A stretch of DNA of 64,000 bases from Cyanidioschyzon merolae. Its lineage: Eukaryota. Positions 15,034 through 53,850 of this stretch are shown one piece after another (positions within the stretch are counted from its first letter, which is position 1; every line of letters begins with the position of its first letter). The stretch lies in assembly GCA_000091205.1 (NCBI GenBank), contig AP006498.2. One strand, written 5' to 3'. Below the pieces are notes generated by a model. It searched no databases. It was given only the letters and a program-made list of their open reading frames with translations, and had not been told where the DNA came from. Made by a program: the position numbers and the translations under genes.

Positions 15034-15099
15034 AATCCATTTCCGTCTTCGATATTGTACGTGACGAAGCATGAAGATGAGAAGGAGGCGGGTCCTGCG

Positions 15100-17913: not shown

Positions 17914-18306
17914 AGGACGTCGCCGGCGCGTTGTCGCTCGGTGCAACACACGTGCATGTCTGCTGTCTCGTATTAGAAGAGTGCGCCACCTAGTACGAGC
18001 TAGCCTGGAGCATCGGATGTCAATGCCAGAGAGATGTCTCTGAGCCCGTGTGAGAGCATTTCGGCCGGGGATATTGTGCGGAGGAGTTTGCCGCCTCGAC
18101 ACACAAGCGAACAATTCTGGTTCATTTTCTGTGCTGCACAAGGTGCTTGATGAAGGACATCGATGCCCTACGTCCATTTCAGAATAAATTGAAACGTTCC
18201 ACTTAACAAACTCGGGCATATGTAATCATTATACTGGGTCTCATCCAGTTCTCACCTACGACACCAGCCTTTGCCCGCGGTATCTACGACTGCTCTTTGT
18301 TCCTCT

Positions 18307-23154: not shown

Positions 23155-23649
23155 TGCAACCGTCTAGCGAATCGTCTCCGAGAAACCAGAAATTAACAGT
23201 GATTTAAGAATCGGAGATGCAACGAAGAAAAGTTACGCAACAATATTCACTGTACACAGTTGTCCAGGATCGTCTACAGTGCATGTGCATGCACGCGGTT
23301 CCGAGATGACGCCTCGGCACGCAGCAATGCATGGCGTTTCGGGTTGCCTGAGTGGCGGCGCAATCAGCATCGCGGCAAGCGCCCGCGATAGGCGCAGTAT
23401 GCCGAGAACTCTTTGCCCGCAGACAAACAACTAATCTCTATGTCGAACGGAGGGACTGTTCTTGAGCTAGTGGAACGTTGAAGCGTCTGAAGTAATACGC
23501 AACTATGATGGAATTGAGCAGCATTGTGAAGTGCATTGGAGGTGTTCGTTCAAGTTTTCTTGTCATAGTTTTTCACCTAAATTGTGTTCCACTCCTCCGG
23601 TGCGTGTCATCAAATGCGTGTTCGCGGTTTATAGCGGATTCGTTCGAAG

Positions 23650-24150
23650 TAGGTTCATTTCCAAAAATAAAAATCTAAGGATCAGGTATCGACATGCAAG
23701 GCGGGGATCCAGGAGGACCCTCATCACTGGCTGCCTGAGTAAAAAACGAAACAAATCCTCTTCTCGCCGATCATCGAGCGAAGAAGAGCAAGTGACCAGG
23801 AAGAAAAAGGCGAAGAAGATGACGATGAGAGATCGGCGAGAAAATGTATTTGGTCAACGGAACGATGACGTCCCTTTGGTGGCAAAGAGGGCTCGCGTTC
23901 TGACAACTATTTTAAAGGTGAGCTCAACCAGAGGCAATAAACGCATAGAGTTCGTGAACCGAGACTTCAACGCCGCCATCAATATCATGAGATGCACGGT
24001 GCTGGAGACGAGACCCGAGGAGCTGAGGCGATCCAAGTTTGTGAGGCAGCCTCTCAGGCTCGTTCTGTGCATGAATAAACCTAAATCGATAGCAGGGTCG
24101 CGGTCGAACAGGGCAGGGACGCGTCTACGGGTGGGTATTCACGCACCCTG
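23650..24150 (+). mobile_element. Family-B short non-autonomous TnpB/Fanzor-derived repeat, copy B2
   Basis: It begins 'ccaaaaataaaaatctaaggat' like 1030. 23740-24140 aligns with 31610-31990 ('...tcatcgagcgaagaagagcaag...', '...cagcctctcaggctcg...'). It encodes 'KRIEFVNRDFNAAINIMRCTVLETRPEE' (RuvC-III) with no upstream RuvC-I or RuvC-II. Confidence 0.55.
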
Positions 24151-26272
24151 CTTGCTCGTGGGACTTTGTTTCTTTCATTGACGATAACAGTGACGATAAT
24201 CACGGACAGAATATCCACCTGTGTGCACTTTGTAAAGCTCCTGAAACCTAGGCCACAGTCGAGTAACGAAGCTCATTGTCTACCGTTCAGGGTAGATCAA
24301 GAGACAGACTTCGGGGTCGGCGTGGACCCGGGAGCTGCAGGATGTCACGCCCGATTTTTAACCTCTGAATGAGGAGGCCGGCGCCAAAGACCTACTCGGA
24401 AGGAAGCTGACCCTGTTCAAGCTTTCCAGGGCAGGGGATTATCGAGATTCGGGCATAACGTTCGCCAGCAGGGATACCAGCAAGTGGAACGACGGCGTCC
24501 GGGCCCGACTCTCGACGCTCTGGACACCGTATCGAGCAGACGGGGGCATGCTTTGCACGCTTGATTCATAGATCATATGAGCCTCAAAACGTCTCCTGCG
24601 GGCGGTCTTTGGCAGCAGTACACACGGGCGCGCGGGGTCGGAAACCGATTCGGTTGAACGGAGGCAGCCATCGTGTATGCGCCAACTTGTCAGATGTGTT
24701 CGAACGAGAAATGATCGACACGTCGCGCTGTTTCGCGGAAGCCTAAGGCGCTGGACGTGGTTTAACGCGCATGAATGCGCTCCTACTCTTCGACCAGAGC
24801 GTGCAACGAGTGCAGGAACCGATCCTCAACGATACCCCAGCCCTGAGTTCGGGACGGCGTGCACGCATCCCGAGCACAGGTGCATGCTGAAACTGGTAGC
24901 AAAGAAGAGACGGAAATAAAGTTGGATGCTCGAGCTGGTGTACGGTAAGCTGACTGTGTGTCAGATGGCGAGCGAGTCGCAAGTGCGACGCGTGCTACAA
25001 TCTGAGTCCACCGCCATCCATGAGAGAAAGCAACTTCTGCACCGATATCTCAAAGCCTTGAAAAGCGTACGGAAATGTCTCGTGCCTCCGAAGAGTTCGG
25101 TGGCTTTGTGTGGCGCGAGCTTTCGGGAATTATTTCGTATCCTATCCATGCATTGTGCTGAAACACAGAAGAGTATTTATAAAAAATCAGGGCCAGGAGC
25201 GAGGGGGCGGCCTTCGTTTCTCGCCCGGAGCAAGGCTCTGGTATGGTACGATTCAGCTACCGAACGACATTGGTGCACCGTACACATACATCGTCAATGA
25301 TTTTCCTCGGCAACTGATACACCATTATTTGAGACGACGAATATAGAACAGAGTCAAATTGATGGATCAAAGCAGGTGAGCGGGGGCATAGACCTTGCGT
25401 TTCCGCAGACGGATTCCGGATGATGCCGCTTGTGTGATTTTTTCGTTGACAAGTCGCCCGCAGGGGACACGAACCTCCAAGTTCCCACAGAGAGGACACT
25501 TTGAGGCCAGTGCTGGACCGCACGGCCTGCAAGACCTGTGTTCGCTCCATACCCCTGTAGTATCTCCTATGGACGTGCTTTCCACGACTTATTCTGTCCA
25601 AACGAGCGTTTGCCCACAAAGATCTGGTCCATCAAAGTTGAGTTCAAGGCACAAGCGCAAGTAAAGCCAATTTTGGGCCCTGTACAATATGCAGGTGGCC
25701 TTCACAGCATACGCTTCGTTCCTCGTTTACGACGCGGCGAACGAGTGCTTCCGCGGAGGCGACCACGCACACAACCCCTGAAACTGAGCAGCTACAAACT
25801 GCATTAGTGGACCTGGAAGACCTGTTTCTCCTGCTTTGTATTCGTCTCGTCATCGAGCCCAGCGTATTCAGTAAACTTCCGTGCAAGTCACGGTTTACGT
25901 GCAGGTTTTCTTCGTAGACTCCGCCTTGTCCTGGAGAGTTTACGCTCGATTACGAGCAGCCTCGTAGGTAAACTTCGAAACAATTCGCCATTTACGTGCA
26001 GATGCCTATCCAGATGCTGCGACGTCCTGCTGAAATCACTCTCGTAGACGTGCAGTTTCGTGCAGGCCGCCCCTAGTTCTGTTCGAACTCGCGCGTCCAG
26101 CAGCGAGCCTCGTTGCTGAGCGCTGCGCTCGGCACCGAATGCCTCTGCGGCTTGCACATGCTCGCTCAGAAGCGTTCGTGTTGCACTGGGGGGTTCATCG
26201 CAGCGTACGCCAAGTCACTGTGACCAGATCATAACGTTTCGGCTTCCGCTACGCGGCTTATACGGTGAGTTC

Positions 26273-28892: not shown

Positions 28893-30275
28893 TCAGAATC
28901 CGTAGTACCGGATCCTTTCGGGAGGTCCGGTCCAACATCGGGTGGTGCCACGTAGTGACGTGTTGCCCTGCAGTCCGATGCTTTGGGCCCAGTCCGTCTG
29001 CGTCGGAGCTGTGGTATCGTCGGTTGCGAACGTCTCCTCATCCGAGAGCAGGCGTTGGCGCACCCGCTGGAAAAAGTCGTATGTCTTTGCATGGCCGTCT
29101 TGTCGACTTGCTTTGACGGTCCGAATATACTCCTTGTACTTGTTCCAGCCTGGGACCGCCTCGTAAGCGTGATCACGCCACACGAACGGACAATTCCAGT
29201 TCGGATCGCCCGGTAGGGGCTCGTCGTTGATGGAATCCACTGTGGGCAAGCGGATACTGTTGTCGTCGACCATAGTGGCGTGGTCCGCTCGCTGACTCGA
29301 GAGATAATCGTCAAAATCGAGGCCATCTGGGGCTATTCGGTACGGATTTGCGAGCTCGTCTGCAACGTGCAACCAACCAATATAAATGAAGAAGACGCTC
29401 ACAATGTAGACCATATCGGTCCAACTGTAGTTGGCGGAATCCGTCCCCGAGCTGGTGGCACCCAAAAGCTGCAGGTTCCCAGCAAGCAGGACGACAACGA
29501 GAATATAGATTCGTACAGCGGCACTCACAAGCTGCCGGTACATAAGAGGCACTGGCACTGTCACAAAAACGTACATGCTTCCGAGGCCTTGACGAAGGCT
29601 TGCCAACTGCTGTGAGAGCTGCAAGTGGACCCAATGCGTCACTCCGTAGTTCGGCTCGTGGTCTCGCAGGCGCGTAAACGTGTGTCCCGCCCACATCAGA
29701 GGCAGCGTGAAACGAACTCGGTCCACGTCGTGCTCAATGCGTTGGCGCTCCTCTGCCGTCATCATGCCGAGCTGCTCCAGGGAATCAAAGGAGTTGTACA
29801 GGTGCGTTCCATCGGTTATAATCTCACGCAACACGAGCGCAAACGCGAGGTTGCACCAACGCACAATTCGCTGTTTGAGACGTGCAGCTGTTATCGGGTC
29901 CTTGTCGCTGTAAATAAACTGAGTCATCTCCATGGCGATGTTGTAGGCGGCCATCTGCGCGGTGCCACACATGGAGACGCGCGCGTCCCACCAGCGCGAG
30001 TATATCGTGCTCGTGTAAAAACCCAGCATAAACGTGAGAATTGGAGATAGCACGTTCGCCAAAATCGCCAAAACAAGGAGAAACGCATGAGTCCACGTCG
30101 CAACGTACAGCTTGAGCGCGATCACGAGCGCCGCCAGCGCTAGCCATAAGATTATTTCGAACAGCAGCCGCTGCATCAGAGAACCGTGCCAGTAAAAAAA
30201 GAGCCGCAACCATGACAGGGGCAGAACATAGTCTTTCCCGAAAGTGGCAACGGGGTCTTTGTACAGGATGGTCAT
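28893..30275 (-). CDS. Bestrophin-family anion channel, paralog 4
   Basis: 'MTILYKDPVATFGKDYVLPLSW', 'ILTFMLGFYTSTIYSRWW' and 'YIGWLHVADELANPYRIAPDGLDFDD'. It is ~70% identical to copies 1 and 2. The ORF extends to 30302, but the homologous start is the Met at 30275. Confidence 0.85.
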   Translation of the reverse strand: MTILYKDPVATFGKDYVLPLSWLRLFFYWHGSLMQRLLFEIILWLALAALVIALKLYVATWTHAFLLVLAILANVLSPILTFMLGFYTSTIYSRWWDARVSMCGTAQMAAYNIAMEMTQFIYSDKDPITAARLKQRIVRWCNLAFALVLREIITDGTHLYNSFDSLEQLGMMTAEERQRIEHDVDRVRFTLPLMWAGHTFTRLRDHEPNYGVTHWVHLQLSQQLASLRQGLGSMYVFVTVPVPLMYRQLVSAAVRIYILVVVLLAGNLQLLGATSSGTDSANYSWTDMVYIVSVFFIYIGWLHVADELANPYRIAPDGLDFDDYLSSQRADHATMVDDNSIRLPTVDSINDEPLPGDPNWNCPFVWRDHAYEAVPGWNKYKEYIRTVKASRQDGHAKTYDFFQRVRQRLLSDEETFATDDTTAPTQTDWAQSIGLQGNTSLRGTTRCWTGPPERIRYYGF

Positions 30276-31051
30276 GGACGCAGTTTGTGGTCCGGCGCAC
30301 AAGGCAAGCCGCCACGCGTCCGCGCAGGCAACAACGTGCTCACGGGGAATACTGGCGTGTCGGTGCCGAGCCTGCGCGCGGCACTAGCGCCCCAGTCCAA
30401 TATGTCCATAAGATCTACTTGATTCACTAGATGTCAAGTTAAGGACAGGTATGAGACTGCTCCCAGGGGCACCCATCCGGATGCTACCGCTGATTAAGCG
30501 ACGCGTTCCGGTGTTCACGGGTGCATGGCTCGTCGAGCGGAACCCCTTTTCCCAAGGTCAGCGAATGCACTGCACAGCGCTTGGCACTTGCGCCTCGAGA
30601 CAGTTAGGCAGTTATCGGAGCGCTTGAGGCAACTTGGGGATCGCCAGCGGGGGCCAGCGTGCCACGACTGAACTTGGTGCGGCCGGCTGACTCGCCTATC
30701 GCCTCCGCCCACTGCCGGGTTCGGCATGGAGCCGAGGATGCTCGACCTTTCGCACTGCGCGGGTTCGAGATTTGTTTTATTCGGGTATTTGAACTGAAAT
30801 TTATTCCAGACCAGCTGATTCCACTCGAATGCTTTTCTGCAGTGTATGGCAGGAGATCCAAATCACGATGCAACGTACCGTATAGATCGTAGACGAATTG
30901 CATGCAGGATACATGTATGACTGAACAGCGCAGAGAAGAATGCGTTCGTACTTCATGTCAGTCATACGATGGTACCGTGATGGTTGAGGAACGCTGAAAG
31001 ATCTAAGTAGACGCGCTTCGCGCCAAAATCCGATATTTTTACAGACTGTTT

Positions 31052-32000
31052 GCGATCTGTGGTAGAAAACGACACGTTGATCACTTTACAGAAAGCAAAA
31101 GCGATGATAATAGGCGTCACAGGCATCTCTGTTTCGCAACAGCATGTTCGTTTGGTCTTGAAAACAGTCGGATACTGTCGCAATAAAGTCCTAGTTCACA
31201 CACGGTATCCTGCACCGAAATCCCAGCTACTACAGCGTCCCTAGAACGTCGTGATCGGTATGAAGCAAAGGAACGTCGGTCTGTTTTTCCCGACTCTATC
31301 GGGGAGTAGAGCTGCTTTTGATTCCTCCATACTTTCCATGGTTCCTCCCCATCGATGGATACTTTTCTATTGTGAAACGTGGTGATCGCTATACTGGGCG
31401 AGGCGCTGAGGTGTTAAGCATACCGTTACACACCGGGCCACATGACATCGTTCTTCCGCAAGACCTTCTTCTTCCCCAGGGAGATGGGTGCTCACCTAGC
31501 CGCATAAACAAGAGTATTCATTTTCAAGAAAAAACTATCGAAAGGAAAGTTTTGGGAACGAAAATCGGGGATACCACAAGGCCGTCATCGCGGAGTTCGA
31601 CAGCGAAACGAAAAAATTCTCCTCTCGTCGATCATCGAGCGAGGAAGAGCAAGCGACGAAGGTGTCAATGATACGCGAGAAAAGGTGTTTCCCCGACGGG
31701 ACGACGACGATACTGTATTGGAACTGAGGCGCAACTTCGAGGACATGCTCGATTGCTGAGTTCCATCAGCGTCAATACACGGACGGAGTTCGTGAACCGA
31801 GCCCTTAACAGTGCCATCAATACCAGACGACATGCGGTGCTCCAGAAGAAACCTGAGGAGATGAAGGGATACAAGTTTGTCGCACAGCCTCACAGGCTCG
31901 AAATATGTAGGAATAAACAGATACCGACAGCAGGTGTCCGGTCAAAAGGGGCTGGGAGGCGTCTGCGCGTTGGGATTCATTTACCCGAGCGAGCATCGAC
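31052..32000 (+). mobile_element. Composite repeat E3 (family C+B), same family as 285-2090
   Basis: 31052-31500 is homologous to 285-1000 (for example 'ggtagaaaacgacacgttgatcac' vs 'ggtagagaaccggtccgttgaacgc', and the 'tcctccccatcgatgg' block). 31540-32000 is homologous to 23650-24150 and encodes the degenerate 'TEFVNRALNSAINTRRHAVL'. Confidence 0.5.
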
Positions 32001-33706: not shown

Positions 33707-36700
33707 TTGGTACTAAGCAGTGTCGGGCGGCTCTTTCTAGAGCTAGGAAACCAGAGTGTCTGGATGGACCGCCGCTGTCTCAGCTTTACAGCTGGTCAAA
33801 ACTTCTTTCCCTGGAGCTCGTTACGCGCCGCCTCCGTCGCGCGTTTCTGGTTGCGGCGGCTTGGTGAAGTACCAGCCGAAGGCGGATCGTTTCCCTATCG
33901 CAGAAGTTTCTTGTGCCCGTTTACCCCTGGATCGAATTTATATAGAGGCTGCGCAAAGTCGCGAGAGAGGCTCGGGCCCTGGCTTTGGCCGACGAACGAA
34001 GCACTCCCGGGGAAACAGCACGCAGGGTTCTGGCGATGGCAGGCTTCGGCAGCGTCTGGAAGCGGTACAGACGGATCAGGTACTTTCGCGGACCCTACAG
34101 TCACCCAGGTACGGAACAAGGATAGTATTTTGGCTCCGGGGACCACGGAAACCGCCCATAGAGAGCCAGAATCCATCGTACCTTCACCACGAGCTGATGG
34201 TGCTTACGACTTTCTCGCTGTGGAACGTCGCTGGCAAGAGTTCTGGGAACGCGAGCAAATATTCCGCACACCAGATGAAGTCGATTGGAACCGGCCTAAG
34301 TACTACATTCTAGACATGTTTCCGTATCCTAGCGGTGCCGGGCTTCACGTCGGGCACCCCGAGGGCTACACCGCGACCGACATTCTCGCACGGTACAAGC
34401 GGATGCGAGGGTATAATGTGCTTCATCCCATGGGTTGGGACGCTTTTGGTCTGCCCGCCGAACAATTTGCTCTCGATACGGGAATTCATCCAGCAGTGGC
34501 GACCGAGCGCAACATCACGCGTTTCCGTAAGCAGCTCAAGTCACTAGGATTCTCCTACGACTGGAAACGCGAGATTAATACGACCAGTCCCGAATATTAT
34601 CGGTGGACACAGTGGATATTCCTTCAGCTGTATAAGAGGGGCCTCGCCTATCAGGCTGAGATACCGGTAAACTGGTGCCCGGCACTCGGCACTGTACTCG
34701 CCAACGAGGAGGTCATCGATGGGCGAAGCGAACGCGGGGGCCATCCCGTCATCCGCAAACCCATGCGTCAATGGGTACTGCGTATCACTGCCTATGCTGA
34801 GAGACTGCTCAAAGATCTCGATCTACTTGACTGGCCCGAAAACGTGAAGGAGATGCAGCGAAACTGGATCGGCCGAAGTGAAGGAGTCGAAGTTACGTTC
34901 CCCACGGTGTCCGATGCTTCGTCGGCATCCGCCAAGGGCGCGCTCGCAGAGCCCCCAGGCATCACCGTTTTCACAACGCGGCCGGAAACCATATCCGGGG
35001 CCACGTACCTGGTCGTTGCTCCCGAATACCCGATTCTAGAGGAGTTGGTAACGGATGCGCAACGAGAGCAAGTCCAGCGCTACGTGGAGCAGGCGCTGCG
35101 ACGCAGCGACCGCGAGCGCACCGGCACTGAGGTCAAGCTGAAGAGCGGCGTCTTCACGGGGCGGTACGCCCAGAACCCTGTTACCGGGGAACACATACCT
35201 ATCTGGGTAGCGGATTACGTTCTCGGCAGCTACGGCACTGGAGCGATCATGGCGGTGCCCGGACACGATGCACGGGATCGAGCGTTTGCGGAAACATTTG
35301 CCTTGCCCATCCGGATTGTCATCGACGAAACGACGAATCAAATGACCGACTGGAACCCAGACTGGCTTGGCGGCCTGGAAGTTGCAGGCACGAACGTGGA
35401 GGCTGCCCGGGTGCGGATCACGGAAGCACTGGAGCGACTTCATATCGGGGAGCGAAAAGTGAACTACAAACTCAGGGATTGGCTGTTTAGTCGCCAGCGG
35501 TACTGGGGCGAGCCCTTCCCGATTGTGTTCGACGCAGAGACCGGCGAGCCGCTGCCCGTAGATGAGCAAGCACTCCCGGTCGAGTTACCTACCACGGAGT
35601 CGATTCGTCCGAGTGGCGATGGACGCTCTCCGCTGGCCAAAATTGTGGACTGGGTGGAAGTTCGTGATCCTCAGACCGGTCAACTGCGTTACCTACGCGA
35701 GACGAATACGATGCCCCAGTGGGCTGGCAGCTGTTGGTACTACTTACGCTTCATCGACAACAGCAACGCGGAGCGGTTGGTTGATCCAGTCAAAGAACGC
35801 TACTGGATGCCGGTTGACCTGTACGTCGGCGGCGTGGAACACGCAGTGCTCCATCTTCTCTATGCGCGCTTTTGGCACAAGGTTCTCTACGATTTGGGGG
35901 TCGTGAGCACTCCCGAGCCCTTCCTACGCCTGGTGAACCAGGGCATGATTCTCGGTGAGGTTGAGTACACGTGTCGTCGTGAACGAACCGCGGCAGAGGG
36001 CCGGCAGCTTGTTGCAAACGGCCACGCTGCCGAGGCACCGCTCCTCGAGGAAGTGCGCGTACCCGCCGATCAAGTCGAGAAAATAGGCAATGATCGCTAC
36101 GTTTTGAAGGCGGATCCTCGTGTAGTGGTAACTGCACGCGCCCATAAGATGTCCAAGTCACGGGGCAACGTGGTCAATCCCGATGATATTGTGGAACAGT
36201 ACGGCGCAGATGCGTTGCGATGCTACCTCATGTTCATGGGACCGCTGGATCAGGTTAAACCCTGGTCGACTCAGGGCGTCAACGGGATGCGGCGCTTCCT
36301 CGATCGCGCTTGGCGTCTGCTCTTCGACAAAAACGAGGTCTGCAACGGAGACTCTCGAACGGAGCATCAGGTGCAGCCGACACGTGCACAGCTGCGTCAG
36401 CTGCACAGCCTCATCAAACGAGTCACCGAGGATACAGAGGCACTTCGTTTTAACACCGCCATCGCAGCGATGATTGAATTTGTGAACGATGCCTACAAAT
36501 GGGAGGTGCCCTGGCCAAAAGATATCTTATTGGGTCCTTTTGTTTTGCTCTTGTCGCCGTATGCGCCTCACGTAGCCGAGGAGATGTGGCAGGAAATTCG
36601 TCGGCGGCAACAGCTTCGCCATGGAACCGAACGAGACTCAGATGCTGCTGATGCCCAGGTGCCGCGTTCATTGGCCTACGAGCCTTGGCCTGACTACGAT

Positions 36701-36910
36701 CCCCAATACTTGGTGCAGGAGACGGTCGTCTATGCTGTACAAGTGAACGGCAAGTTGCGCGGCACACTCGAGATTCCCAGTGACGCCGATCGAGATGCCG
36801 TCCTGGCAGCCGCTCGACAAGTAAGTAGTGTCGCGAGTCATCTTGATGGAAAACAGGTTGTTCGTGAAATCTTCGTTCCCGGCAAAATCGCAAACTTTGT
36901 CGTGAGATAA
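33707..36910 (+). CDS. Leucyl-tRNA synthetase, bacterial/organellar type, with ~160-aa N-terminal extension
   Basis: '[15 protein letters not shown]', '[52 protein letters not shown]' (HIGH region), '[14 protein letters not shown]' (KMSKS) and the editing/CP1 domain are collinear with bacterial LeuS. The 1067-aa ORF is uninterrupted. Confidence 0.92.
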
Positions 36911-42059: not shown

Positions 42060-42639
42060 CAGCGTCGTTGCCGAGGTTTATGTGTTCAGGTGCGTATGCC
42101 GCTAGCTTGAGCGCGTCAACCGAATGAGCAGCGGCTCGTGCACGAGTACCGGATCAATGAATGCACCGCTTTCTCGGTGCCTGGGGGCGACGCGAACAAC
42201 CGCTGCTGCTACCAAGGTATCGTGTTGAGGTGTGTCGCGAGCAATACGAGTCGGTAACAGTGGTATGGAGGTCTCACTGCTTCTGTCATGTGCTTACCAA
42301 GATCTACAACGCACGACATTCCGAAGTGGTTGGTGCTTGCTTTAGAGTCGGGCTTGAGGCCTAGCTCGTTTGCAGCGACGGGTGTTCTTGTCGGGGTGCG
42401 TTCGTTGCCTTTCCAAGCGTCGACGGTGACAACGTATGCCCAGCACGTACCAGAAGCACGTCGTCGTGTGTGTCTCTCGATGGACCACGACTTTTGGGTT
42501 GGCTTGGTGAACGTCCGTCGTTGTCGTTCTCGTTGTCTGCAGCGCAGCGCTCCCTTCGCGTTGACTTTGGCTTCGTGGTGCCTATCCATGGAAGCAGCGG
42601 TTCTCCAGAGCTGGTGTGTATGCGGCTTTGGAAGCATAT

Positions 42640-44330
42640 CTCGTTACGCTCAGAGTAGTGAATTCTGGGCTGCATGCACCAGCACGCGCAATTGTTGCTG
42701 TCTGCGTTATCGCAGGTAGCCTAGAGAAGGAAAGCATGCTGTCGAGTGGAGAAATGATCACGGAATGACATGATGCTTTCATTGCTAGCCTGAGGAAAAC
42801 CGCCGCATTTCTCCAAGTCAGTCATGCTGCGGTCAGCGGGCGGATGAGGCGCCCTTCTCCCAGTGCATGTCGTGAACGGTACGCACCCAGAACGGTACTT
42901 TTTCGGTTCTAGCTGCACGAAGCGCTCCTCGTCGAGCAACTCCGCTCCGTGTGTTCTCGAAAACATCGTACAAAATGAGCCACAGGATGTGCAGTCTCGG
43001 CACCGTCGACACGAACGGTGATGGAGAGACACGGATACTCGAGGCGAAAAACACGCTTCCCTGGGGCAGCATACTGCGTCGAAGGATACACTGTCGATTT
43101 CGTACGGAAACGGGAACGCGTATTCCACGAGATATACGGACGATCGTCTCTGTCGATGAGACTTCATTTGGGTGCGCTGCTGCATCTGTACGTATTTGGG
43201 CGGAGAGGCGCAAACCGCAGGTCGTCAAAGAGCGACGAGTGAGCAGTCGGATACGTCCAGCCCCAGCGGCGCCTCGAGCCGGTTGTCTACTGCACATCAC
43301 CGAACGGGCGGGATCGTTCAACACCTCATGCTTCGTCGTCAGACGCTGTGTGGCTTTTTCGTTCCAGATGCATTTGTGCCGCTTTCGGGAATCGCCGCTT
43401 TCCATCCCTCAAGGCGGTCATGGGGCACGCGGCTGATTCTGGCGTCGAGCTGCTCTTGGTGCGCGTCTATGCTCCGTAGGTCGGTGGTGTCGAAGGCGTG
43501 GGCGTTGCCGGTAGACGCCATCTCTACGCTCATGGATACATAGATGAGTCTTTCGCATCCGGTACACCGAACGATTCGGGATGTCACTCGGAATGCGCCC
43601 AGCTGCTTACGCTGGGAAGACTCGCCTAGCTCGCCGCGCCTTGATGCACCTCGCCAAGCAAGTATTCGCAGAACTTTCGGACGCTAGGCTACCAGCTGTC
43701 CAGAGACCTCTCGAATTTTTCGATCAAACTTCCCAGCGACAATGCAAGTTATGTTCGGGTGAGAGGCTGCACTGCGAACGCATTTTCTCCCAGGCTCGCT
43801 GCAGTCGGGCGTTGGACATGATGGACGGCAGGGGGCATACCGACACACATGGAATGACGGCATCAGGACCTGTTTCAAAGCTCTGAGCATCGTACTGAGC
43901 AAACGGGGATGCTTTGAACGCTCTGTATAGTCAGCACATTTGCGTGCAACTGGCACATGCGTACAATCTATGGTAAAAGTATATGAGAAAGCGATCGGAT
44001 CGCCGATTGTATCAGTTGCATGGACGCAAGAAACATGCATTCACCAACTTGTCCAATGAGTTGGGAAATGAAATGAACAATGATTAGCATCGACCGGTTT
44101 TAGTGTATGGAGCTGGACTTGCCGTAGCGCGCAGAGTACGCCCCGCTGGTGCCCCTCCGACAGCCCACATCGAGTACGGGTAGCAATTCTGAACAACTCC
44201 CATCGATGCATTCATGACGACAGAAACGCATCTCGAGCAAGATTGCATGAGGAAACAGGTAGAGGATAAGAGCGTGAATAGAGCCGGATGCATGAGATGG
44301 TGTACTGCAAGGTGAACGAAAGTCAAATGG
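42640..44330. repeat. Direct segmental duplication, copy 1 (core 42640-43590 nearly identical to 50221-51146; 43590-44330 divergent)
   Basis: ORF twins such as the 154-aa pair 42721..43185(-) and 50300..50764(-) are almost identical. Downstream, only protein-level similarity remains: '...LPAVQRPLEFFDQTSQRQ' vs '...LPASRISLKFFDQTFLRKH', and 'NASMGVVQN' vs 'NTSMGIVQN'. Confidence 0.85.
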
Positions 44331-45212
44331 CGAGGTAATCGACGGTGAGCGACTTGCTATGTTCTGATTCGTCATGCAACCATGCCCGCAAACACTCTCT
44401 GCACTGCTACTTGCATGACGCGATCGATATGCAGCGAAATGTGTTGTGCTTGCCAGGCTTCCGGCAGCTTTGCGTTGAACGAACTTTCTAGGATATCGTT
44501 TAGTGCTCAGTATGAGCATAGCGCTGACAAGTCGCAGACTTTCGATGGCAAAAATCAGTGGCACTGCATCGAACGACTGGCTTCTATCCTGGTGCAAGCC
44601 AGTTGTGTGGTACGCTTCAGCAGTTCCTCAATGCTACAGCGCCGTGTGTATCCACCGGAAGCAGTTTTCCTGGCCAATTAGAAAGCGATCATAGTGTTCC
44701 ACGATGCGATACAACTGATTCCATTTCCTCATCGCCAGGTCGCGACAGCTCCCGGCTCCGGCGGCGGCCTCTGTAAACTGCACCGGTCTTGGCCCGACTC
44801 GAGCAGTGCAGCGCACTCTGCGGAATATTTTTCATTCGGATGGATTGTACAGCGAACCGTCTCCAACCCGGTAACCCGTGGCCGTCTCGTATCGCAACGG
44901 TGATCAAATACGCGAAAACCGCTACCCCGAACAGCGCTGATCGTTCCCGGGGCTCGCGAATATTCGCGTACGCGCTAGAGCTCATCGTCCTATCCTCCAT
45001 CGCTCTAATCGAGTACAAGATATCAGCTGTGGCGAACGATCCTCGCCAGTCTCGCAAAAAACGCGGAAGCCTCCGCGATCCTCAGCTGCGCATCCGGTGA
45101 GGCTGCACCAAACGCCCAAACGCCTCAGCACCGCACTCGAGGCAACCCCAGCTCGATGACGATTAGATCGCATGTGCTCATGACGCATACCGCCGAAGCT
45201 GCAAACCAACGA

Positions 45213-46673
45213 TCACTTGTGCTTATCATCGTTCGAGTCAGCGAAGAAAAAGCGCCTCAAGCGCTCCCAGACAGTCCCCGGTTCCTTCTCCGGGGTCGAT
45301 GTCTTTTGCGGTTGAGGCCGCTCGCCTTGAGCTGCCGTTGTCGGGGTACCCCAAAACTGACGCCCGAACCAGCTATCCCAGCCGCTGTCCGCTCGTCGAC
45401 TCTGTTCATCGGCACGCTCAGCGGTTCGCCGCTGTGTCGGATCCCGACGACGCTGCAACCACTCCAGAACAGCGTCGAGGCGACTGAGGAGACTACCACC
45501 ACCGGAGGCAGGACCCTCGGTCGTGCGGCTACCGAGTCCCCAGCGTCGAGCTCTGCGGCGCAACGCCAACTCCTCTCGCAGATGTTCTTCTATGTACACG
45601 AAATAGAGATAACCAAAGATCGCTCCGCCCAAATGCGCAGCAAAGTCGATGTAGCCGAAGCGCCCGACGACACCGATGACGTCGAAGAGCACCCACAGCA
45701 GACAGGCTTCCTGTGCAGTCATCTTGATGCCCATGACGTAAAGGGATGAACGCGGAAAAAGCATCGCAAACATGACCAAAACCGCCATGACGCTACCGCT
45801 CGCACCGATGGAGACCGCACCCGACAACCGCAACCTTTTGTAAAGTAGACTCATCGCCGAGGAGAGAAAGGCACCTCCGGCGTATAAGGTGAGAAAGCGC
45901 GATGGACCGAGCACTTTGCACACATCTAGACCGAAATTGGCGAGAAGAAACATGTTCCCCAGAAGATGCAAGAAACCCATATGTGATATGGAGCTGGTGA
46001 GGAGCGTGTGCGTCCGCCCTGCGTAGAGCGACTCGAGCGAGCAGGCAAAATGACGCCACATGAACGGCGGTCCGCCTGGTCTGCTCTTCCATGCCAAGTA
46101 CACCAAACCATTCAGCAAAATCAGGGAAAGAATCGTACGACCTTCTCGTGACGCCCATGAGCGTCGGACCCGGTCGCCCATGCTGCGTACCCAGTCCAAT
46201 AGTGCGTCTAGGTTTTGCTCAAGGTCACCTGGACGAAAGCAGAGCGCTTGCGGACCTCCGTGTTGTTCCTTGCTACCCGACGGGAGCTTGTCTCTCGTTT
46301 GCGAAACACCGGACAAGTTGAAAGTGTCTGATTCGTTGTGCGAGACGCAGTGCCCCAGCACCGCAAGTCCGCCGAGACCGCTCCAGACTGCTGGGGCAGC
46401 GCTAGCACGGGCACCGCTCCAGCGGTAAAAGCGCGCCATTCGCCACACTGGGGTCTGGAGTTGCACGCGCAGCTTCTCTGCAAGAAGCGAGCTGCTCATT
46501 AGAGACATTCCAGCCTCGTGGCAGGTGCTTCGTTGCTCGACGAAGCCCGGACGGCATCCGGGGCTGTCGACCTGCAGCGGCCGAGCGACATACCGTAACC
46601 AGCGTCGACCAACAGAGCCAAGGCCCTGTCGAATCGGTCCAAGCATAGTCCCTGGTAACCGAAAGATGGTCAC
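45213..46673 (-). CDS. Rhomboid-family intramembrane serine protease (PARL-like)
   Basis: Catalytic 'GASGSVMAV' (GxSG) and a downstream 'AAHLGGAIFGYLY' His-containing helix, plus several TM segments and an N-terminal extension. Confidence 0.8.
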   Translation of the reverse strand: MTIFRLPGTMLGPIRQGLGSVGRRWLRYVARPLQVDSPGCRPGFVEQRSTCHEAGMSLMSSSLLAEKLRVQLQTPVWRMARFYRWSGARASAAPAVWSGLGGLAVLGHCVSHNESDTFNLSGVSQTRDKLPSGSKEQHGGPQALCFRPGDLEQNLDALLDWVRSMGDRVRRSWASREGRTILSLILLNGLVYLAWKSRPGGPPFMWRHFACSLESLYAGRTHTLLTSSISHMGFLHLLGNMFLLANFGLDVCKVLGPSRFLTLYAGGAFLSSAMSLLYKRLRLSGAVSIGASGSVMAVLVMFAMLFPRSSLYVMGIKMTAQEACLLWVLFDVIGVVGRFGYIDFAAHLGGAIFGYLYFVYIEEHLREELALRRRARRWGLGSRTTEGPASGGGSLLSRLDAVLEWLQRRRDPTQRRTAERADEQSRRADSGWDSWFGRQFWGTPTTAAQGERPQPQKTSTPEKEPGTVWERLRRFFFADSNDDKHK

Positions 46674-47275
46674 GTTTGATCAGGACTGCGCTCGTCAGCG
46701 GTTGCGTCTGCAGCAGGTGTTCCCGTTCGAACGAACGAGCGAGCCCAGAAACCGCCACGTCACTGGACAGCGGCGAGGAGAAAGCAGGTGCCGCTGCTGC
46801 TGCAGAGCATTGTCGCGGATGCTGGTGCCGCGTTGTGCCGGGGGCGTTTCTGGGAGACCTCATCCATGGTCCTATCGTGACGACATGGCACTCTGGCGTC
46901 AAGTTGTGCAGGTATGTAAAGAGTCACGGGGTTTTGGCGAACAGTGTCGAGTCCGCGCTTCAAGCTCTGTGGAAAGGGCGCGTGTTTAGCAAGCGCTCTG
47001 GGGCACTGCGGACATCGAGAGAAACGCGCTGCTAGCGCATAGGAACAGGCTCGATTCCCCCAGTATCGATGATTATTAGCTTGAGCACTGATGAAGACTG
47101 CAGAGCGGCAGCAGAGCTTGCTGATTGCTGGGCGACAAGCACGAGACGCGAAGGCCACAGAGGAAACGCGGAGCTCCCCAAGGGACGACGCTCGCGCAGG
47201 TCGTCGAGCTTCAACGTGCCTGGACACCAGCTCGGAGGCCGTGTTGTCGACCGTTTGGATATCGTAGACAAAAGT

Positions 47276-49021
47276 CTACAGACCACTTGGGAAATGCGTT
47301 TGCCGCTCGAGGTTTTGAGCTGCTGTGGACTCACCAGCCCGCAGCATTCTTCGCATCCGCTTCGACGGCATTTCGGACGCTTGCGACGGCTCCAGGAGTG
47401 CCTGGCAATCCGAGTTCGCTTCGGAGCGTGCCGCCTCTTCGTTTTCAGGGACCTGGGGCTCTGTGTCACATGTTAAAGATTTGCCAGAGTGAATCGTTTC
47501 GGGTGCGACGCCATGCGTATTTTCCTTGTCTGCATCCGTCACGTTTTCGTTCAGTGCCGACGAATTCGACTCCGCGTTCATTGGCATAGCTCGCTGCGGA
47601 TGATCGACGGCCAGTTCATGATTGGAGCGTTGTCCATACAGGTTAAACTCGGCTTCTTGGTCTAAATTGCGAGCCGAGAGCGCTATTCGCCGAAGATGCT
47701 GCGCGTGGTCGCTCACGAGCCTATTTGCTTGCTGCGGTGCTGCATGAGAAGGATGCACTTGGAGCCGTGCGTCGCGACGCGGGCAATACGGCACGAGTGG
47801 CTTGCTTGGACGCAAACGTCGAAGCTCACCTCTTTTCCACCGCATGTACTGTTGAGCAGCGCCTTGTACTGCGAAAAACATCGCCCGCTCGGATGACTCA
47901 AAGCGGTGAAGCTGCTCGAGCGGGTCGCCGTCAAACGGGCTCTGGGCGCGATCAGCGATTTCAAGGCAGCGGGCCTGGTGAGCATCCAGCAGTACTGACC
48001 CGAGCTCCGCAAGCACTGCGTTACCGCCGCGCAAGCCATTCCTACTAGCAACGTTCCGAATGCGAAAATACTGCCGAAATCGTTGCACAACTGCATAAAA
48101 ATATGGGCATTTTTCGTTCAAGTTTGCGATACACGGGTCAGCGCGCAGTTCTCGAAGTGTTCTGGATCTCAGACTCGGCGGCAATTCGATGCGCACGAAC
48201 ATTCGTGCAGCCAACATTTCCGCCAACCAGAGTGGAAGATCACACGCCATATCGGGGAGCATGTCAAGTCCACCCGCGACCTCCTGCCGTTGCAAAAGTT
48301 GCTCCGATGAAGGGTTCGCCCCCGATGCCGACGCCCTCGTGACACCATATCCACTTGCTTGGAGCGCTGCCTGATGGGTCAAGGCAGCAGCAGCTGCTGC
48401 TGCTGCGGTCATGATGTCAGATCGATCTTTCGATAGTGCGTCGCGCGATAAGCGTCTCTCGAAATCCTGGACAGGTTCAGCTCTGTCTGATACACTGCTG
48501 CGCTCATTCTCCTGGGAGATGCCCTCTCCTGATGTCTCGGTGTGCGCGTGTACGAGGCTCGCAGCATTGACTTCGGCTTGCGCTGCGAATGATGCACCGC
48601 CGCTGGTGTCCAAACAGGCCATGCCTCGAACTCGTTCGAGGAAAACGCAGCGGAAACGGGTCTCCGCTGCGAGAATTTCATCTAGTGAATAGTAGTCTCT
48701 ATCGAGAAGCACGGGACCTGCATACGAGTTTGATCTTCGCTGGTGTTGACCGAAAGACGCTGTGCTGTGCGCGTGGCTCCAGGATTGCAGAGCGGGGTTC
48801 GTCCCCCGCTGGTTCATGGAAAGCGACACTGGGAGAGTCTCCGAATTATACCTGCCGACGAGCGTCTCTGCGCCGCGGGAGCCCATGCTTCCTTCTTTTC
48901 CGGACACAGGGAAGCGGTGATAGTGCCGCTGATTAAGCCGGCTTGGCGTAAACGACACCAGAGACGTTACTAGAGCGTGCTCGTGGCCTTGCCGATCCAC
49001 AAGCACCCAAGAAGCAACCAC
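47276..49021 (-). CDS. PSF3: GINS complex subunit Psf3-like protein with long low-complexity insertions
   Basis: 'YYSLDEILAAETRFRCVF' resembles Psf3 'FLSLDDILMSHEKLPV'. 'DLPLWLAEMLAARMFVRIELPPSLRSRTLRELRADPCIANLNEKCPYFY' aligns with human PSF3 'ELPLWLAKGLFDNKRRILSVELPKIYQEGWRTVFSADPNVVDLHKMGPHFY'. An Ala/Gln-rich insert lies between the two blocks. The true start is uncertain. Confidence 0.55.
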   Translation of the reverse strand: MVASWVLVDRQGHEHALVTSLVSFTPSRLNQRHYHRFPVSGKEGSMGSRGAETLVGRYNSETLPVSLSMNQRGTNPALQSWSHAHSTASFGQHQRRSNSYAGPVLLDRDYYSLDEILAAETRFRCVFLERVRGMACLDTSGGASFAAQAEVNAASLVHAHTETSGEGISQENERSSVSDRAEPVQDFERRLSRDALSKDRSDIMTAAAAAAAALTHQAALQASGYGVTRASASGANPSSEQLLQRQEVAGGLDMLPDMACDLPLWLAEMLAARMFVRIELPPSLRSRTLRELRADPCIANLNEKCPYFYAVVQRFRQYFRIRNVASRNGLRGGNAVLAELGSVLLDAHQARCLEIADRAQSPFDGDPLEQLHRFESSERAMFFAVQGAAQQYMRWKRGELRRLRPSKPLVPYCPRRDARLQVHPSHAAPQQANRLVSDHAQHLRRIALSARNLDQEAEFNLYGQRSNHELAVDHPQRAMPMNAESNSSALNENVTDADKENTHGVAPETIHSGKSLTCDTEPQVPENEEAARSEANSDCQALLEPSQASEMPSKRMRRMLRAGESTAAQNLERQTHFPSGL

Positions 49022-50220
49022 TCGTCTCTCTTGAGTAGGGAGCGCTGCCCCAGCGGATCTGGCGGTTTGAATTGAGGAGCGCGGGGTACGGGCGCGCCTC
49101 CTGCGCTGCGCTGCTGCGCGCCTTCCGATTGATGGGGTAGCAGATCAAAGGCTGATTGATGAATGCATGGTGGAGCACTTTGTATTTGAACGGGTCGTAG
49201 ATGAATGAATGAATGGTTTTTTGCAGAGCACTCTGTACTTCTTTCAGTAATAGGTAATTCGTTGATTTATCTGTAGAGATCTTTTTAGATGGAACGTCCT
49301 ACGATCCGGACACGTGCGCTAGCTACGTGCGCCTTGCACCCCTGCAGTGACGTGTACCGAGCTGACGTCTGCACAGCTCGAGGGCAATGCATGCTCCACG
49401 TGACTTCAAAGATAGGGGTCTATACCCAGGCCTCGATCTGGTCGCCGCACTCCTCGAATGTATCGGTCCGCGTTGGCAGTCTCGCGTGCGCAGAATTCCA
49501 GCGCGAAGCCTGACGACGAGTTCCGGCCTCACGCCGGGCGAACGGTGCCTCGCACCGACGTCCGCAGGTATACACTGTAAGGCTGTTCCGTCTCTAGATG
49601 GCGACCGCAGCAGCGCTTCCCCGCTGTAGCAAGCGTGCCGAATGCGCTTGGCACCAGGACGATCGCTCGATTGAACTGGCTTAGATTCTTCGGAGAAATC
49701 CTGCGTTGGAGATTATGGTGCATAGAGGCGGATGCGGAAGGACAGAGACTCTTTTGTTGCTCTCCGGTAGCGTTTGCGTATCTGGAGAAATCGCGGGTAG
49801 ACTCATTGATCTTGTACGGTGAAGAATTGTGCAATACCCGGTGGGATTCAGCTTTAGGATAATGCACCGTGACGGGTGCCCGGTGCAACGCCATGCATAT
49901 CGGTCCCATGCGCGATGATGCTTTTGGATGACTACGAGTCGCCGCTGCCGTCATTTTTGACCGAGTCGAGGTTGCGCAAGGATCAGCAGTTCGCCGTTTG
50001 GAATAGAGCGCTCCATGAATACAATCCGATGGATGCGATATCGACAGAAACACTCTATCAAGTATAACCGTTGTCATTACATTTGCTTCATTCGCGGAAC
50101 CTATTGAAATAGACTTGCAATCGGTTGTGGCGCATCACTGCCGTGAATGGCAACAAAAAAAGCAGCCGGCTCGGTTACAGCCGAGCGGCTGTGTTGCATG
50201 GTGTAATCAGCACACCGGGG

Positions 50221-52320
50221 CGTTACGCTCAGAGTAGTGAATTCTGGGATGCATGCACCAGCACGCGCAATTGTTGCTGTCTGCGTTATCGCAGGTATCC
50301 TAGAGAAGGAAAGCATGCTGTCGAGTGGAGAAATGATCGCGGAATGACATGATGCTTTCATTGCTAGCCTGAGGAAAACCGCCGCATTTCTCCAAGTCAG
50401 TCATGCTGCGGTCAGCGGGCGGATGAGGCGCCCTTCTCCCAGTGCATGTCGTGAACGGTACGCACCCAGAACGGTACTTTTTCGGTTCTAGCTGCACGAA
50501 GCGCTCCTCGTCGAGCAACTCCGCTCCGTGTGTTCTCGAAAACATCGTACAAAACGAGCCACAGGATGTGCAGTCTCGGCACCGTCGACACGAACGGTGA
50601 TGGAGAGACACGGATACTCGAGGCGAAAAACACGCTTCCCTGGGGCAGCATACAGCGTCGAAGGATACACTGTCGATTTCGTACGGAAACGGGAACGCGT
50701 ATTCCACGAGATATATGGACGATCGTCTCTGTCGATGAGACTTCGTTTGGGTGCGCTGCTGCATCTGTACGTATTTGGGCGGAGAGGCGCAAACCGCAGG
50801 TCGTCAAAGAGCGACGAGTGAGCAGTCGGATACGTCCAGCCCCGGCGGCGCCTCGAGCCGGTTGTCTACTGCACATCACCGAACGGGCGGGATCGTTCAA
50901 CACCTCATGCTTCGTCGTCAGACGCTGTGTGGCTTTTTCGTTCCAGATGCATTTGTGCCGCTTTCGGGAATCGCCGCTTTCCATCCCTCAAGGCGGTCAA
51001 GGGGCACGCGGCTGATTCTGGCGTCGAGCTGCTCTAGGTGCGCGTCTATGCTCCGTAGGTCGGTGGTGTCGAAGGCGTGGGCGTTGCCGGTAGACGCCAT
51101 CTCTACGCTCATGGATACATTGATGAGTCTTTCGCATCCGGTGCACCGCTTTTCGACAAGTCGCCCTCAGTATTCACCAGCCATGAACTGCTCTGTTGCG
51201 GCTCTGCTCAATCGAGGTAGGGAGCGGAAAGGTGCGCCTTTATCAGTAAGCATGCTCGCGACGGAGAAGGTGACGAAAACGTACTTGAGGAATATTCCAT
51301 AGATGTATGCAAAAGGCGAGTTTCCCACACATCGTCGACCTAGTGAGTCTCATTCTCCAGGTAAAGCGGATTCGTCATACATCGCCCACATGTATGTTAT
51401 GCCGCATGTTCAACAGAAGAAAATGAAGAAACCACCGGGCAGAGAGCAGAAGGAACAGAAAGCAGGAACAGTCACAGTAGAAAAATTGGTCCTAAACTAT
51501 TACCGAGCCCTGTCATCCCGGACACACCAACAGGGAGAATCTATCAAAAAGCGAGATGCAGGGCGTCATGGAGGATCGCGTAGCTTCCTACTCGAGGGGG
51601 GCTCTTCCGGCTTCTCCCGCCTTGACGAACCTCGCAAATCGACTGTTTGTGAGCATCCGGGATGCAGGGCTGCCAGCTTCCCGAATTTCTCTGAAATTTT
51701 TCGATCAAACCTTCTTGCGAAAGCACAACGAATGCCCGGGACGGAAGATGCAAGACGACCTGGCTATGGGGTCAGAGCATTGTGCACACGCTTCCCAGAA
51801 TACATGGAGACGTCGCAGCGCAACGCTCGAGATCGAAATGAACCAAAGCCCAGGTGCCAAAAAGGCATCAAGACTATCTCAAAACCCTAAACGATACACG
51901 GGTCAATGTGGAGCGCCGCAGGAACGGCACCCTGTGAGCGCGGTTCCCGCGTCTCACTGACCGCGGAATGTACGGACTGATAGAAAGGATTCTATACTTC
52001 AGAGATTAGATGAGCATCCAGAATGACTCATGCCAGCGCCCTTCGGACGGAGTGCATAAAACCGTGCTGGGGTCGCCACTGGATTCAATGGCACGGAGGC
52101 AGGAAGCGCATGTTCGCCAGCTTGTTCAACGAACTGGAAAAGGGACTAACGGGTACGCCGCGTCGTTTCATTACAGACTCTGGCGCTGGACGTACCGTAG
52201 CGCACGCGGACGCTGCACGCATCGACCTTCGACGAAAGCGTACACAGCGCGAGAATCGATTCTGTACGATTCCCATCGATGTGTTCAGGACGACGTGCAC
52301 ATAGCATGAGCACGACTGCA
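50221..52320. repeat. Direct segmental duplication, copy 2 (core 50221-51146; ~400-bp insertion 51146-51556; divergent tail to ~52320)
   Basis: See copy 1. The two cores are ~97% identical by eye over ~930 bp, offset by ~7.58 kb. Confidence 0.85.
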
Positions 52321-52860
52321 CGCCAAGTCAAGTATAAAGGAATGGAACATGGAGCCCGATGCACGACATGGGGTATAGAGAGATGCCCGAACGCCAGATG
52401 GCGCTGCAATCGAAAGGCGAGAAGCTTGCTATGGTAGGATGGCACCAGCACGAATGCCTGCATGCACCCTCTGCACCGAGACTTGAACGCCGTGATCACC
52501 ATCAGGAAATGCGTTGTGCTTCCGGCGCGTCCAGTGTGTTCGTGTGAAGCGAATTCCAAAGGAAATCGTTTATAACTCACTTTGGGCACTGAGGTCCAAC
52601 GCTGCAGACTTGCCATCAAAATAGCACTCAGTGGCTACCAGAGAGAGGGAGAGAGAGAGAGAGCTTCGGATTCCCACCGCCTGAAGCACGACACTGGCAT
52701 GGAGCAATCAGCAATCCATGTAGGCTGCAGCGCCATATCCATAGATCGGACACGTTTTTCCTGGGCATTTCGTCGACGATAATGGTGTCCTATTATTCAG
52801 TATAACTGGGCATACCAGAGGAATCCGCAAAATCGAATCTTCCTCATTCGCTTCGCTCCT

Positions 52861-53850
52861 TTAAAACCCGGGATGCACTCGCAAGTCACGTCCGCGGCGT
52901 ATTTCAGCATCGAGGTCCTCGGCCGCACGTCGCGGATCTTCAGCACCCAGGATAGCTGATATGCACGCTATACCTGCGGCCTTACCCTGGGAAATACATT
53001 GTCTAGCGTTAGAGATTCCAATACCTCCGACAGCAAGCACCGGGAGTGGTGCAACCGCTTCCACGATGTGTGCCAGTCCACGGATACCAATCGGTGCACC
53101 CGCATCGAGTTTTGTCTGTGTGCCAAATACCGGGCCACAGCCGATATAGTCCAACCGTATGGGGCGTTCCGCGGTACTCGCTTGTTTCAAAGCTGTGACT
53201 TCAGACAACGAGCCAGCAGATGCGCCTATGATCCAGTCAGCAGGCACGAGCTTCTGTACATATTCCAAGGGCATATCTTCTTGGCCAACGTGCAAGCCAT
53301 CCGCGTCCACCGCAAGCGCCAGGTCTAGCCGATCGTTCATGAGAAAAGGAACACCCGCTGCAGCACAAACCGCACGCAGTCGTTTGGCGAGTTCCAGCGT
53401 CTTGCGCAGTGAGCTCCTCTTATCTCGCAGCTGGACCGCTCGCACGCACCCAGAGGCCAACGCACGCTCCGTAAGCTCTTCTAGTGACTGCCTCGACCCT
53501 AGTTGTGAAACATAGGCTACGTCTGCAATGAGATACAAAGAGAGATCGGTGCGCGTGCTTCTGAACGGTGTCAGGCGGTCACCTGCTGCATGAAGTGGTA
53601 CAGCGTAACGTTCCCCGCGTCTTCGACATCGCCGCTGTTCACCGTGCAGGTCGAGCGAAGCAGCTCGGTGCCTTGCGAACCAGCTGCCGCTGCCTACTGC
53701 TCTTCGTTGGATGAAACTTAAACCTGTTGCCGTGAACGCAGGCGTGGTGCCGCAGCAGTGCCCCAGCAGGCACGACTGCGTTCCCATGGAAACGGGCGAG
53801 CGCTTACCGCGAGGTCGTTCCGAACGTGTTGCCAGATTACAATGGAACAC
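52861..53850 (-). CDS. thiE: Thiamine-phosphate synthase (ThiE / TMP-PPase) with ~100-aa N-terminal extension
   Basis: 'LYLIADVA', 'VQLRDK', 'FLMNDRLDLALAVDADGLHVGQEDMP', 'IGASAGS', 'DYIGCGPVFGTQTK' and 'PVLAVGGI' are the ThiE motifs in order. Confidence 0.85.
   Translation of the reverse strand: MFHCNLATRSERPRGKRSPVSMGTQSCLLGHCCGTTPAFTATGLSFIQRRAVGSGSWFARHRAASLDLHGEQRRCRRRGERYAVPLHAAGDRLTPFRSTRTDLSLYLIADVAYVSQLGSRQSLEELTERALASGCVRAVQLRDKRSSLRKTLELAKRLRAVCAAAGVPFLMNDRLDLALAVDADGLHVGQEDMPLEYVQKLVPADWIIGASAGSLSEVTALKQASTAERPIRLDYIGCGPVFGTQTKLDAGAPIGIRGLAHIVEAVAPLPVLAVGGIGISNARQCISQGKAAGIACISAILGAEDPRRAAEDLDAEIRRGRDLRVHPGF

Follow-up and report, generated by a model that had tools for sequence, protein, structure and literature searches.

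A near-identical 928-bp repeat beside two decayed Fanzor1 relics in Cyanidioschyzon merolae

The genome of Cyanidioschyzon merolae is compact and nearly intron-free. Here we describe two intergenic regions, 7.6 kb apart on contig AP006498.2 of this organism (GenBank assembly GCA_000091205.1), each of which carries the relic of a TnpB-like Fanzor1 transposon; the relics are in the same orientation, and each has a near-identical 928-bp segment, hereafter the core, directly 5' of it. All positions are those of the 64,000-nucleotide stretch that was analysed, which we call the window. The window is nuclear DNA, probably from chromosome 16. The closest described system is CMe-1A, a C. merolae element of about 3 kb with about 150 copies, each ~80% identical to the consensus, and with neither terminal inverted repeats nor target-site duplications (Bao & Jurka 2013, PMC3627910). 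The same authors described the 5' 635 bp of CMe-1A as a separate 70-copy element, TE-N2_CMe, and listed a Fanzor1 gene in white spot syndrome virus (WSSV). Nozaki et al. (2007) had earlier described a 3.2-kb interspersed element that is present 253 times in C. merolae and whose truncated open reading frame (ORF) resembles the WSSV protein WSV486; that element and CMe-1A are probably the same.

The two relics, T1 and T2, resemble CMe-1A in matching both its consensus and its protein, in keeping remnants of the RuvC-II ('PIDAF/PIDVF') and RuvC-III ('RD..NA') motifs, and in having no terminal inverted repeats or target-site duplications. They differ from it in their decay (~56–58% identity to the consensus, against ~80% for typical copies, with stop codons), in an internal deletion of ~1 kb that removes the RuvC-I region, and at their 5' end, where an unrelated 928-bp segment replaces a region of ~900 bp that includes the TE-N2-like 635 bp. 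Like TE-N2_CMe, whose identity to the CMe-1A 5' end is 95%, the core is a 5' non-coding module far more uniform than the coding part; it differs in its length of 928 bp, in sharing no sequence similarity with TE-N2_CMe and in apparently existing as two copies only. A further parallel is the concerted evolution of dispersed repeats, which the locus recalls in its one near-identical block, in sharp limits that fall at an indel and at the end of homology, and in polymorphisms common to the two loci. It departs from the usual cases in that the block is non-coding, apparently functionless and placed beside dead relics, rather than being a gene family or palindrome arm, and in that the adjoining 1.2 kb of homologous sequence is wholly unhomogenised.

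The repeat and the identity of its tails

Comparison of the window with itself (BLASTN and MAFFT) gave an ungapped direct repeat of 928 bp, 42642–43569 against 50221–51148, whose copies are 98.7% identical and differ by 12 mismatches. The original prediction, a first reading of the sequence, had recognised these near-identical cores but carried the end of core 1 to 43590, ~21 bp too far. The parts of the two regions, with the third relic that served as an outgroup, are these:

42642–43569, no strand assigned: core copy 1, a 928-bp non-coding segment directly 5' of relic T1
43570–44722, plus strand: relic T1, with CMe-1 residues 67–131 (43563–43763) and 464–628 (43785–44285), then the 3' end
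50221–51148, no strand assigned: core copy 2, directly 5' of 406 extra bases and relic T2
51149–51554, plus strand: the 406 extra bases of copy 2, of which the right part is CMe-1 N-terminal coding sequence
51555–52812, plus strand: relic T2, with CMe-1 residues up to 123, then 516–689 (52020–52533), then the 3' end
24187–25125, plus strand: relic T3, matching consensus 2028–2998 (nhmmer), the outgroup for the tails

A global alignment of both intergenic regions put every 100-bp step inside the core at 98–100% identity. To the left the flanks of the two cores agree at ~40%, which is noise, and the edge is abrupt; to the right the core ends exactly where the 406 bases exclusive to copy 2 begin, and beyond that block the ~1.2-kb tails stand at about 55–65%. 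The sharp switch in identity that had been foreseen was thus borne out by a sliding-window check, in which the profile is not uniform, and as Jukes–Cantor distances (0.58 against 0.013) the tails are ~45 times more diverged than the core. It had also been thought that only amino-acid-level similarity survived in the tails and that the segment ended at 52320. DNA-level matches are in fact significant, at 43573–43771 against 51555–51752 (63.5%, E 3e-15) and at 43978–44717 against 52051–52808 (61.4%, E about 1e-53), and homology runs ~500 bp further. The repeat is not an assembly artefact of the window, since independent strain contigs have the same two-copy arrangement: contig L005 extends across core 1 and core 2, and contigs L014 and L007 extend across core 1.

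The tails were identified with the published 3,169-bp CMe-1A consensus and 734-aa CMe-1 protein (Bao & Jurka 2013, PMC3627910, Additional file 2). Against the protein, tblastn matched T1 at E 1e-5 and 3e-11, and the T2 region at E 6e-7 (residues 33–123, 51427–51720) and 2e-16; against the consensus, nhmmer aligned T1 with positions 2309–3010 (E 1e-17) and T2 with positions 2469–2979 (E 2e-20). A hidden Markov model (HMM) of the family recovered both tails (T1 E 5e-14, T2 E 4e-14), and the tail peptides 'LEFFDQTSQRQ' and 'LKFFDQTFLRKH' correspond to 'EEFFDKTFIRH' of CMe-1 (residues about 110–125). The RuvC-I motif 'GADPGNT' lies within residues ~132–463, which are deleted in T1, the RuvC-II glutamate is lost in the relics ('PIDAF', 'PIDVF'), and in-frame stop codons interrupt the ORFs of T1 and T2. 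Judged by these alignments, the tails are old, internally deleted relics of the Fanzor1 family CMe-1A, and with an identity of only ~56–58% to the consensus they are older than typical copies. An ORF with intact RuvC-I, RuvC-II and RuvC-III is found in neither, which by sequence makes T1 and T2 relics and not active Fanzor1 members.

The window also has an intact ORF of the CMe-1 Fanzor1 family (15272–15973, plus strand, 233 aa), 83–87% identical to the published CMe-1 protein. It reads 'AFANFFNQL', 'VVAYGAGRW', 'TIPIDGFRTS' and 'FVNRDFNAAINIRRC', decayed versions of which are legible in T1 and T2, and its C-terminal motifs 'IDGFRTS' and 'NRDFNAAINIRRC' are well preserved. Public metagenomes hold 228 protein clusters homologous to this ORF; the Fanzor family was not found in viral contigs. 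An AlphaFold model built from the family alignment was too poor for a structure search (mean pLDDT 39), a profile search of PDB sequences for a TnpB-like fold came back empty, and Pfam gave only a faint match to Cas12f1-like_TNB (E 1.7).

A profile of the two tails found a third full copy at ~24.1–25.4 kb and partial copies near 14.6–15.9 kb. Over the common part, T1 and T2 are 59.7% identical, T1 and T3 57.9%, and T2 and T3 58.8%, and all three relics have a common 3' terminus, which in T2 comes within ~50 bp of the thiamine-phosphate (TMP) synthase stop codon. These values do not fit the proposal that the tails are the diverged end of a segmental duplication, and T1, T2 and T3 are all relics of the dispersed CMe-1A family. 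Nor are there the co-duplicated host flanks to be expected of such a duplication: the left flanks are unrelated, and rightward homology stops at a terminus that T3 has too. Similarity between the tails is present in all six reading frames (tblastx), and the ratio of non-synonymous to synonymous substitution (dN/dS) between T1 and T2 is 0.65–0.87 in the CMe-1 frame, with off-frames no different; codon periodicity was not found in the repeat. The all-frame similarity, the stop codons and the missing periodicity together show that the tails are not a conserved protein-coding pair, and a minus-strand peptide match that had been offered as further support proved to be the conserved RuvC-II motif region read in antisense.

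The ~400-bp insertion ascribed to copy 2 calls for a different account. The extra bases are there, 406 of them, but their nature is not that of an insertion: 51427–51554 encodes CMe-1 residues 33 to ~75, and CMe-1A consensus 987–1502 matches 51411–51961 (nhmmer, E 9e-5), with no match to the consensus or the CMe-1 protein detected in 51149–51410. Because the block carries these residues and T1 begins at residue 67, at the core edge, the 406 bases are most likely element sequence that copy 1 has lost.

The core within and between strains

Strain contigs ~99% identical to the window were drawn from JGI metagenomes and SRA assemblies. Fourteen of them carry the core (L001, L003–L007, L009–L011, L014–L017), always at locus 1 or locus 2 and never at a third place. 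The 19 full or partial core haplotypes have 34 variable sites, with zero fixed differences between the loci. Paralogs within one genome differ at 12 sites (window) or 5 (L005), and orthologs between strains at 6–15; at positions 614, 632, 635 and 856 both window copies read G, C, G, C and both L005 copies read C, T, A, T. Positions 29 and 112 are the most reliable, as they lie within read length of the unique left flank. There, A29 occurs at locus 1 in L014–L017, and the window and L011 have it at locus 2; T112, restricted to the sample group of L014–L017 and L011, occurs at both loci. Paralogs as close as orthologs, no fixed differences and polymorphisms common to the loci are the marks by which interlocus gene conversion would be recognised, and the allele pattern favours repeated exchange between the two loci. 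The differences between the window copies are enriched in the outer 30 bp of the core (p=0.037), as expected if conversion tracts seldom reach the ends, and the limits of the tracts fall at heterology, which is the 406-bp indel on the right and the end of homology on the left.

The core lacks constraint. Between the window and L005 the cores diverge by 1.19% and 1.29% (the latter being copy 2), coding sequence by 0.2–0.6% and the relics by 0.6–1.3%. The strain divergence of the core is therefore that of neutral DNA, and selection is not what keeps the two copies alike. Differences between copy 1 and copy 2 that fall in the longest core ORFs are all non-synonymous. These ORFs correspond to a single protein cluster among 5.8e9 proteins, and a HMMER search of 1.84e9 representatives found no genuine relative of the core ORFs, the other match being a chance one to a short motif in a tandem-repeat protein. 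Pfam domains are absent from the core in all six frames and in its individual ORFs, the six-frame search having taken in 42060–45212. A DDE transposase relic, suspected from the peptide 'IVSVDETSFG', was set aside on finding neither Pfam support nor a genuine HMMER relative.

Relationships of the core to known elements were sought more widely. Further copies, even diverged ones, were not found in the window (nhmmer, E<=1), and the core was not found in collections of viral and prokaryotic contigs. Comparison with CMe-1A consensus 1–905 gave no nhmmer match at E<=1 in either direction, tblastn and the family HMM with filters off gave no match to the CMe-1 protein, its N-terminal coding part included, and there is no similarity to a fuller Fanzor element on contig L008. 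The core junctions have no terminal inverted repeats, target-site duplication, poly(A) tail or common target sequence. As RNA, the core folds no more stably than shuffled sequence (z-scores +0.24 and -0.27); Rfam has no match at the gathering threshold, the sole match at E<=1 being a weak sub-threshold miRNA outside the core, and a tRNA scan was negative. The template motif of CMP131T, a telomerase RNA candidate on chromosome 16, was not found in the window.

A sister species, with leucyl-tRNA synthetase (LeuRS) 78% identical (contigs L012 and L013), has the same gene order—LeuRS, LSM, oxidoreductase, rhomboid, Psf3, TMP synthase—with spacers of ~700 bp and ~975 bp (L012 8904–9605 and 13276–14251) against 3.15 kb and 3.84 kb in C. 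merolae. Neither a Fanzor relic nor any sequence like the core occurs in the sister-species spacers, so that the blocks of core plus relic are additions of the C. merolae lineage, or else losses of the sister species. Most of the intergenic DNA that C. merolae has beyond the sister species at the two sites is attributable to transposon relics. Within the species, contig L009 is without 116 bp of relic T1 (window 44222–44337), a deletion polymorphism. The 36 LeuRS variants of the species cluster are all at least 99.6% identical or partial, and none represents a moderately diverged strain that could serve as an outgroup.

Gene conversion as the favoured explanation, and its rivals

The explanation we favour, with a probability of roughly 0.55, is that these are two old, internally deleted relics of CMe-1 type whose common 5' non-coding segment is kept uniform by ectopic gene conversion. 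Each intergenic region has a pseudogenised CMe-1 copy in the same direction, with the same core 5' of it. The relic parts would have decayed neutrally to ~60%, the level of any two old family members, with the core kept at 98.7% by ectopic non-crossover conversion between the two sites. Tracts that stop where homology ends altogether on the left and at the 406-bp heterology on the right would give razor-sharp edges. Homologous recombination is known to be efficient in C. merolae. Were the direct repeats to cross over, the rhomboid gene and PSF3 would be lost; should PSF3 be essential here, conversion products alone would survive. We infer that conversion was the mechanism and that it has continued over time. 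Gene conversion was the first of the possibilities named in the original prediction and remains the best explanation, there being no fixed core differences and alleles that can be phased (29, 112) at both loci.

Several points weigh against this explanation. Mid-repeat variants cannot be phased by metagenome assemblers, only the near-flank sites and the window being reliably assigned to a locus, and the interior allele sharing and the L005 edge effect could in part be assembly artefacts. All sampled strains lie within ~1% of each other, and fixed differences would likewise be few if a duplication had slightly predated their common ancestor. Continuous conversion alone does not explain how tails of 1.2 kb, once similar, escaped homogenisation. 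The count of two copies only is indirect, as it comes from the window and 14 contigs and not from a complete genome, and the conversion model leaves unexplained both the origin of the core and how it came to lie 5' of both relics.

The gap between tail and core would have a simple account had the core arrived late. A single transfer of the 928 bp between the loci, through break repair or non-homologous insertion shortly before the sampled strains diverged and with no later exchange, would suit copies that are about as divergent (1.3%) as strains are (0.7–1.3%) and edges that are razor-sharp without a gradient. The window also has a second very recent duplication, the 4-kb inverted repeat at 99.85%. 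We nevertheless think it rather unlikely, for the segment would have had to land in matching orientation just 5' of another relic with the same kind of internal deletion, an improbable coincidence, and A29 and T112 at both loci in different strains are not predicted by one copy and independent mutation. Sharp ends on both sides would also suit a young, low-copy, non-autonomous mobile element, a 5' module in the manner of TE-N2_CMe that inserted independently beside two old relics. The precedent is that 635-bp, 70-copy element, in a group of C. merolae elements known to have neither terminal inverted repeats nor target-site duplications (Bao & Jurka 2013, PMC3627910), and in the window a TE-N2-like module (1288–1928) is nested in an older CMe-1A relic. 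Such an origin is doubtful: the core resembles neither CMe-1A consensus 1–905 nor the fuller element on L008, its junctions carry none of the marks of insertion listed above, no third locus exists among the 14 contigs, its ORFs have no diverged relatives against 228 clusters for the Fanzor ORF, and the relic 5' part that a nested insertion would require beyond the core was not found.

Function would be a different reason for likeness. On the minus strand each core is upstream of a gene, with 589 bp between core 1 and the oxidoreductase start codon, and the repeat-element family is reported to be transcribed (Nozaki et al. 2007); yet that the core is a functional host element, a promoter or non-coding RNA gene whose copies purifying selection keeps alike, is very improbable given a strain divergence of 1.2–1.3%, at least the neutral level, the 34 variable sites, the absence of any RNA structure signal or Rfam match, and sister-species sites that have nothing similar in spacers of only 700–975 bp. 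Scarcely any more credit can be given to a local segmental duplication whose tail encodes a conserved small gene family, as had been supposed. The plus-strand peptide similarity behind that idea is real and in the ancestral reading frame, but it belongs to the known CMe-1 Fanzor1 protein, the ORFs are disrupted, dN/dS matches that of the off-frames, and the tails resemble T3 as much as they do each other; what had looked like an unannotated family consists of pseudogenes of a known transposon. Finally, and as a long shot, the core may be a left-end module still being copied between Fanzor1 relics by nuclease-triggered homology-directed repair, with intact CMe-1A Fanzor1 proteins encoded elsewhere supplying the nuclease in trans.

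The surrounding window and wider meaning

The genes and the one further relic about the repeat are the following:

33707–36910: leucyl-tRNA synthetase, matching BAM81829.1 of C. merolae 10D at 1048/1048 residues
40029–42053, minus strand: pyridine nucleotide-disulphide oxidoreductase (Pfam PF07992), with its start codon 589 bp left of core 1
45213–46646, minus strand: rhomboid protease (Pfam PF01694, E 1e-23), between the repeats
47276–48886, minus strand: GINS Psf3 (Pfam PSF3_N and Sld5), between the repeats
49266–49750, minus strand: old inverted fragment of the CMe-1A 5' module, left of core 2 (consensus 66–547; nhmmer E 3e-21, blastn 60%)
52861–53787, minus strand: thiamine-phosphate synthase (Pfam PF02581, E 1e-51), the right neighbour of T2

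Pfam confirms that the repeats bracket a rhomboid gene and the gene of GINS Psf3, as was first noticed. The suggestion that recombination could excise or invert this interval holds for excision, which is possible with direct repeats, but not for inversion, and the interval from rhomboid to PSF3 is intact in every strain contig. Psf3 is 100% identical in contigs L003–L005, and the exact oxidoreductase protein is present on contigs L001 and L002. Exact-protein look-ups of the core ORFs, Psf3, the rhomboid protein and TMP synthase returned no record, probably because start codons had been called differently. Between Psf3 and core 2, a 182-aa ORF on the minus strand (49529–50077) has no Pfam match and partly overlaps the 49266–49750 fragment; it is probably not a gene.

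Elsewhere in the window, the inverted repeat 10998–15032 / 15519–19559 spans 4,041 bp at 99.85% identity, and each of its arms has a bestrophin gene (12638–14014, minus strand; 16537–17913, plus strand). Its inner ends lie inside a CMe-1A Fanzor1 copy, 15032–16107 corresponding to consensus 2089–3165 at 86%, mirrored at 14444–15032; the 486-bp spacer is the rest of the same copy, which places the breakpoint of a very recent palindromic duplication inside a transposon. Further bestrophin paralogues at 20133–21815 (plus strand) and 28893–30302 (minus strand) bring the number to four within 18 kb, interleaved with Fanzor relics at 19933–20146, 23547–25125 and 31510–31987. The TE-N2_CMe-like 5' module at 1288–1928 corresponds to CMe-1A consensus 3–636 at 82% and splits an older CMe-1A 3' relic at consensus ~2974 (1042–1270 and 1937–2037). 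A short tandem repeat follows at 2214–2460, with a period of ~72 bp and units 83–87% identical.

Two unusually long intergenic regions of a very compact eukaryotic genome are thus explained as Fanzor1 relics. The supposed unannotated gene family falls away, and its parts resolve into a known transposon family and a known process. On the favoured explanation, the locus would be a clean, small natural case of interlocus conversion whose partners are dead transposon relics, with a sharply limited domain that flanks the gene of a GINS subunit. If homogenisation of the 5' module were general for the Fanzor1 elements of C. merolae, it might, more speculatively, bear on how elements without a recognised transposase are copied. 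And should nuclease-triggered repair prove to be what copies the core, the uniformity of 5' modules (this core, and TE-N2 against CMe-1A at 95%) would record RNA-guided 'homing' within a eukaryote's genome rather than ordinary conversion at mitosis or meiosis.

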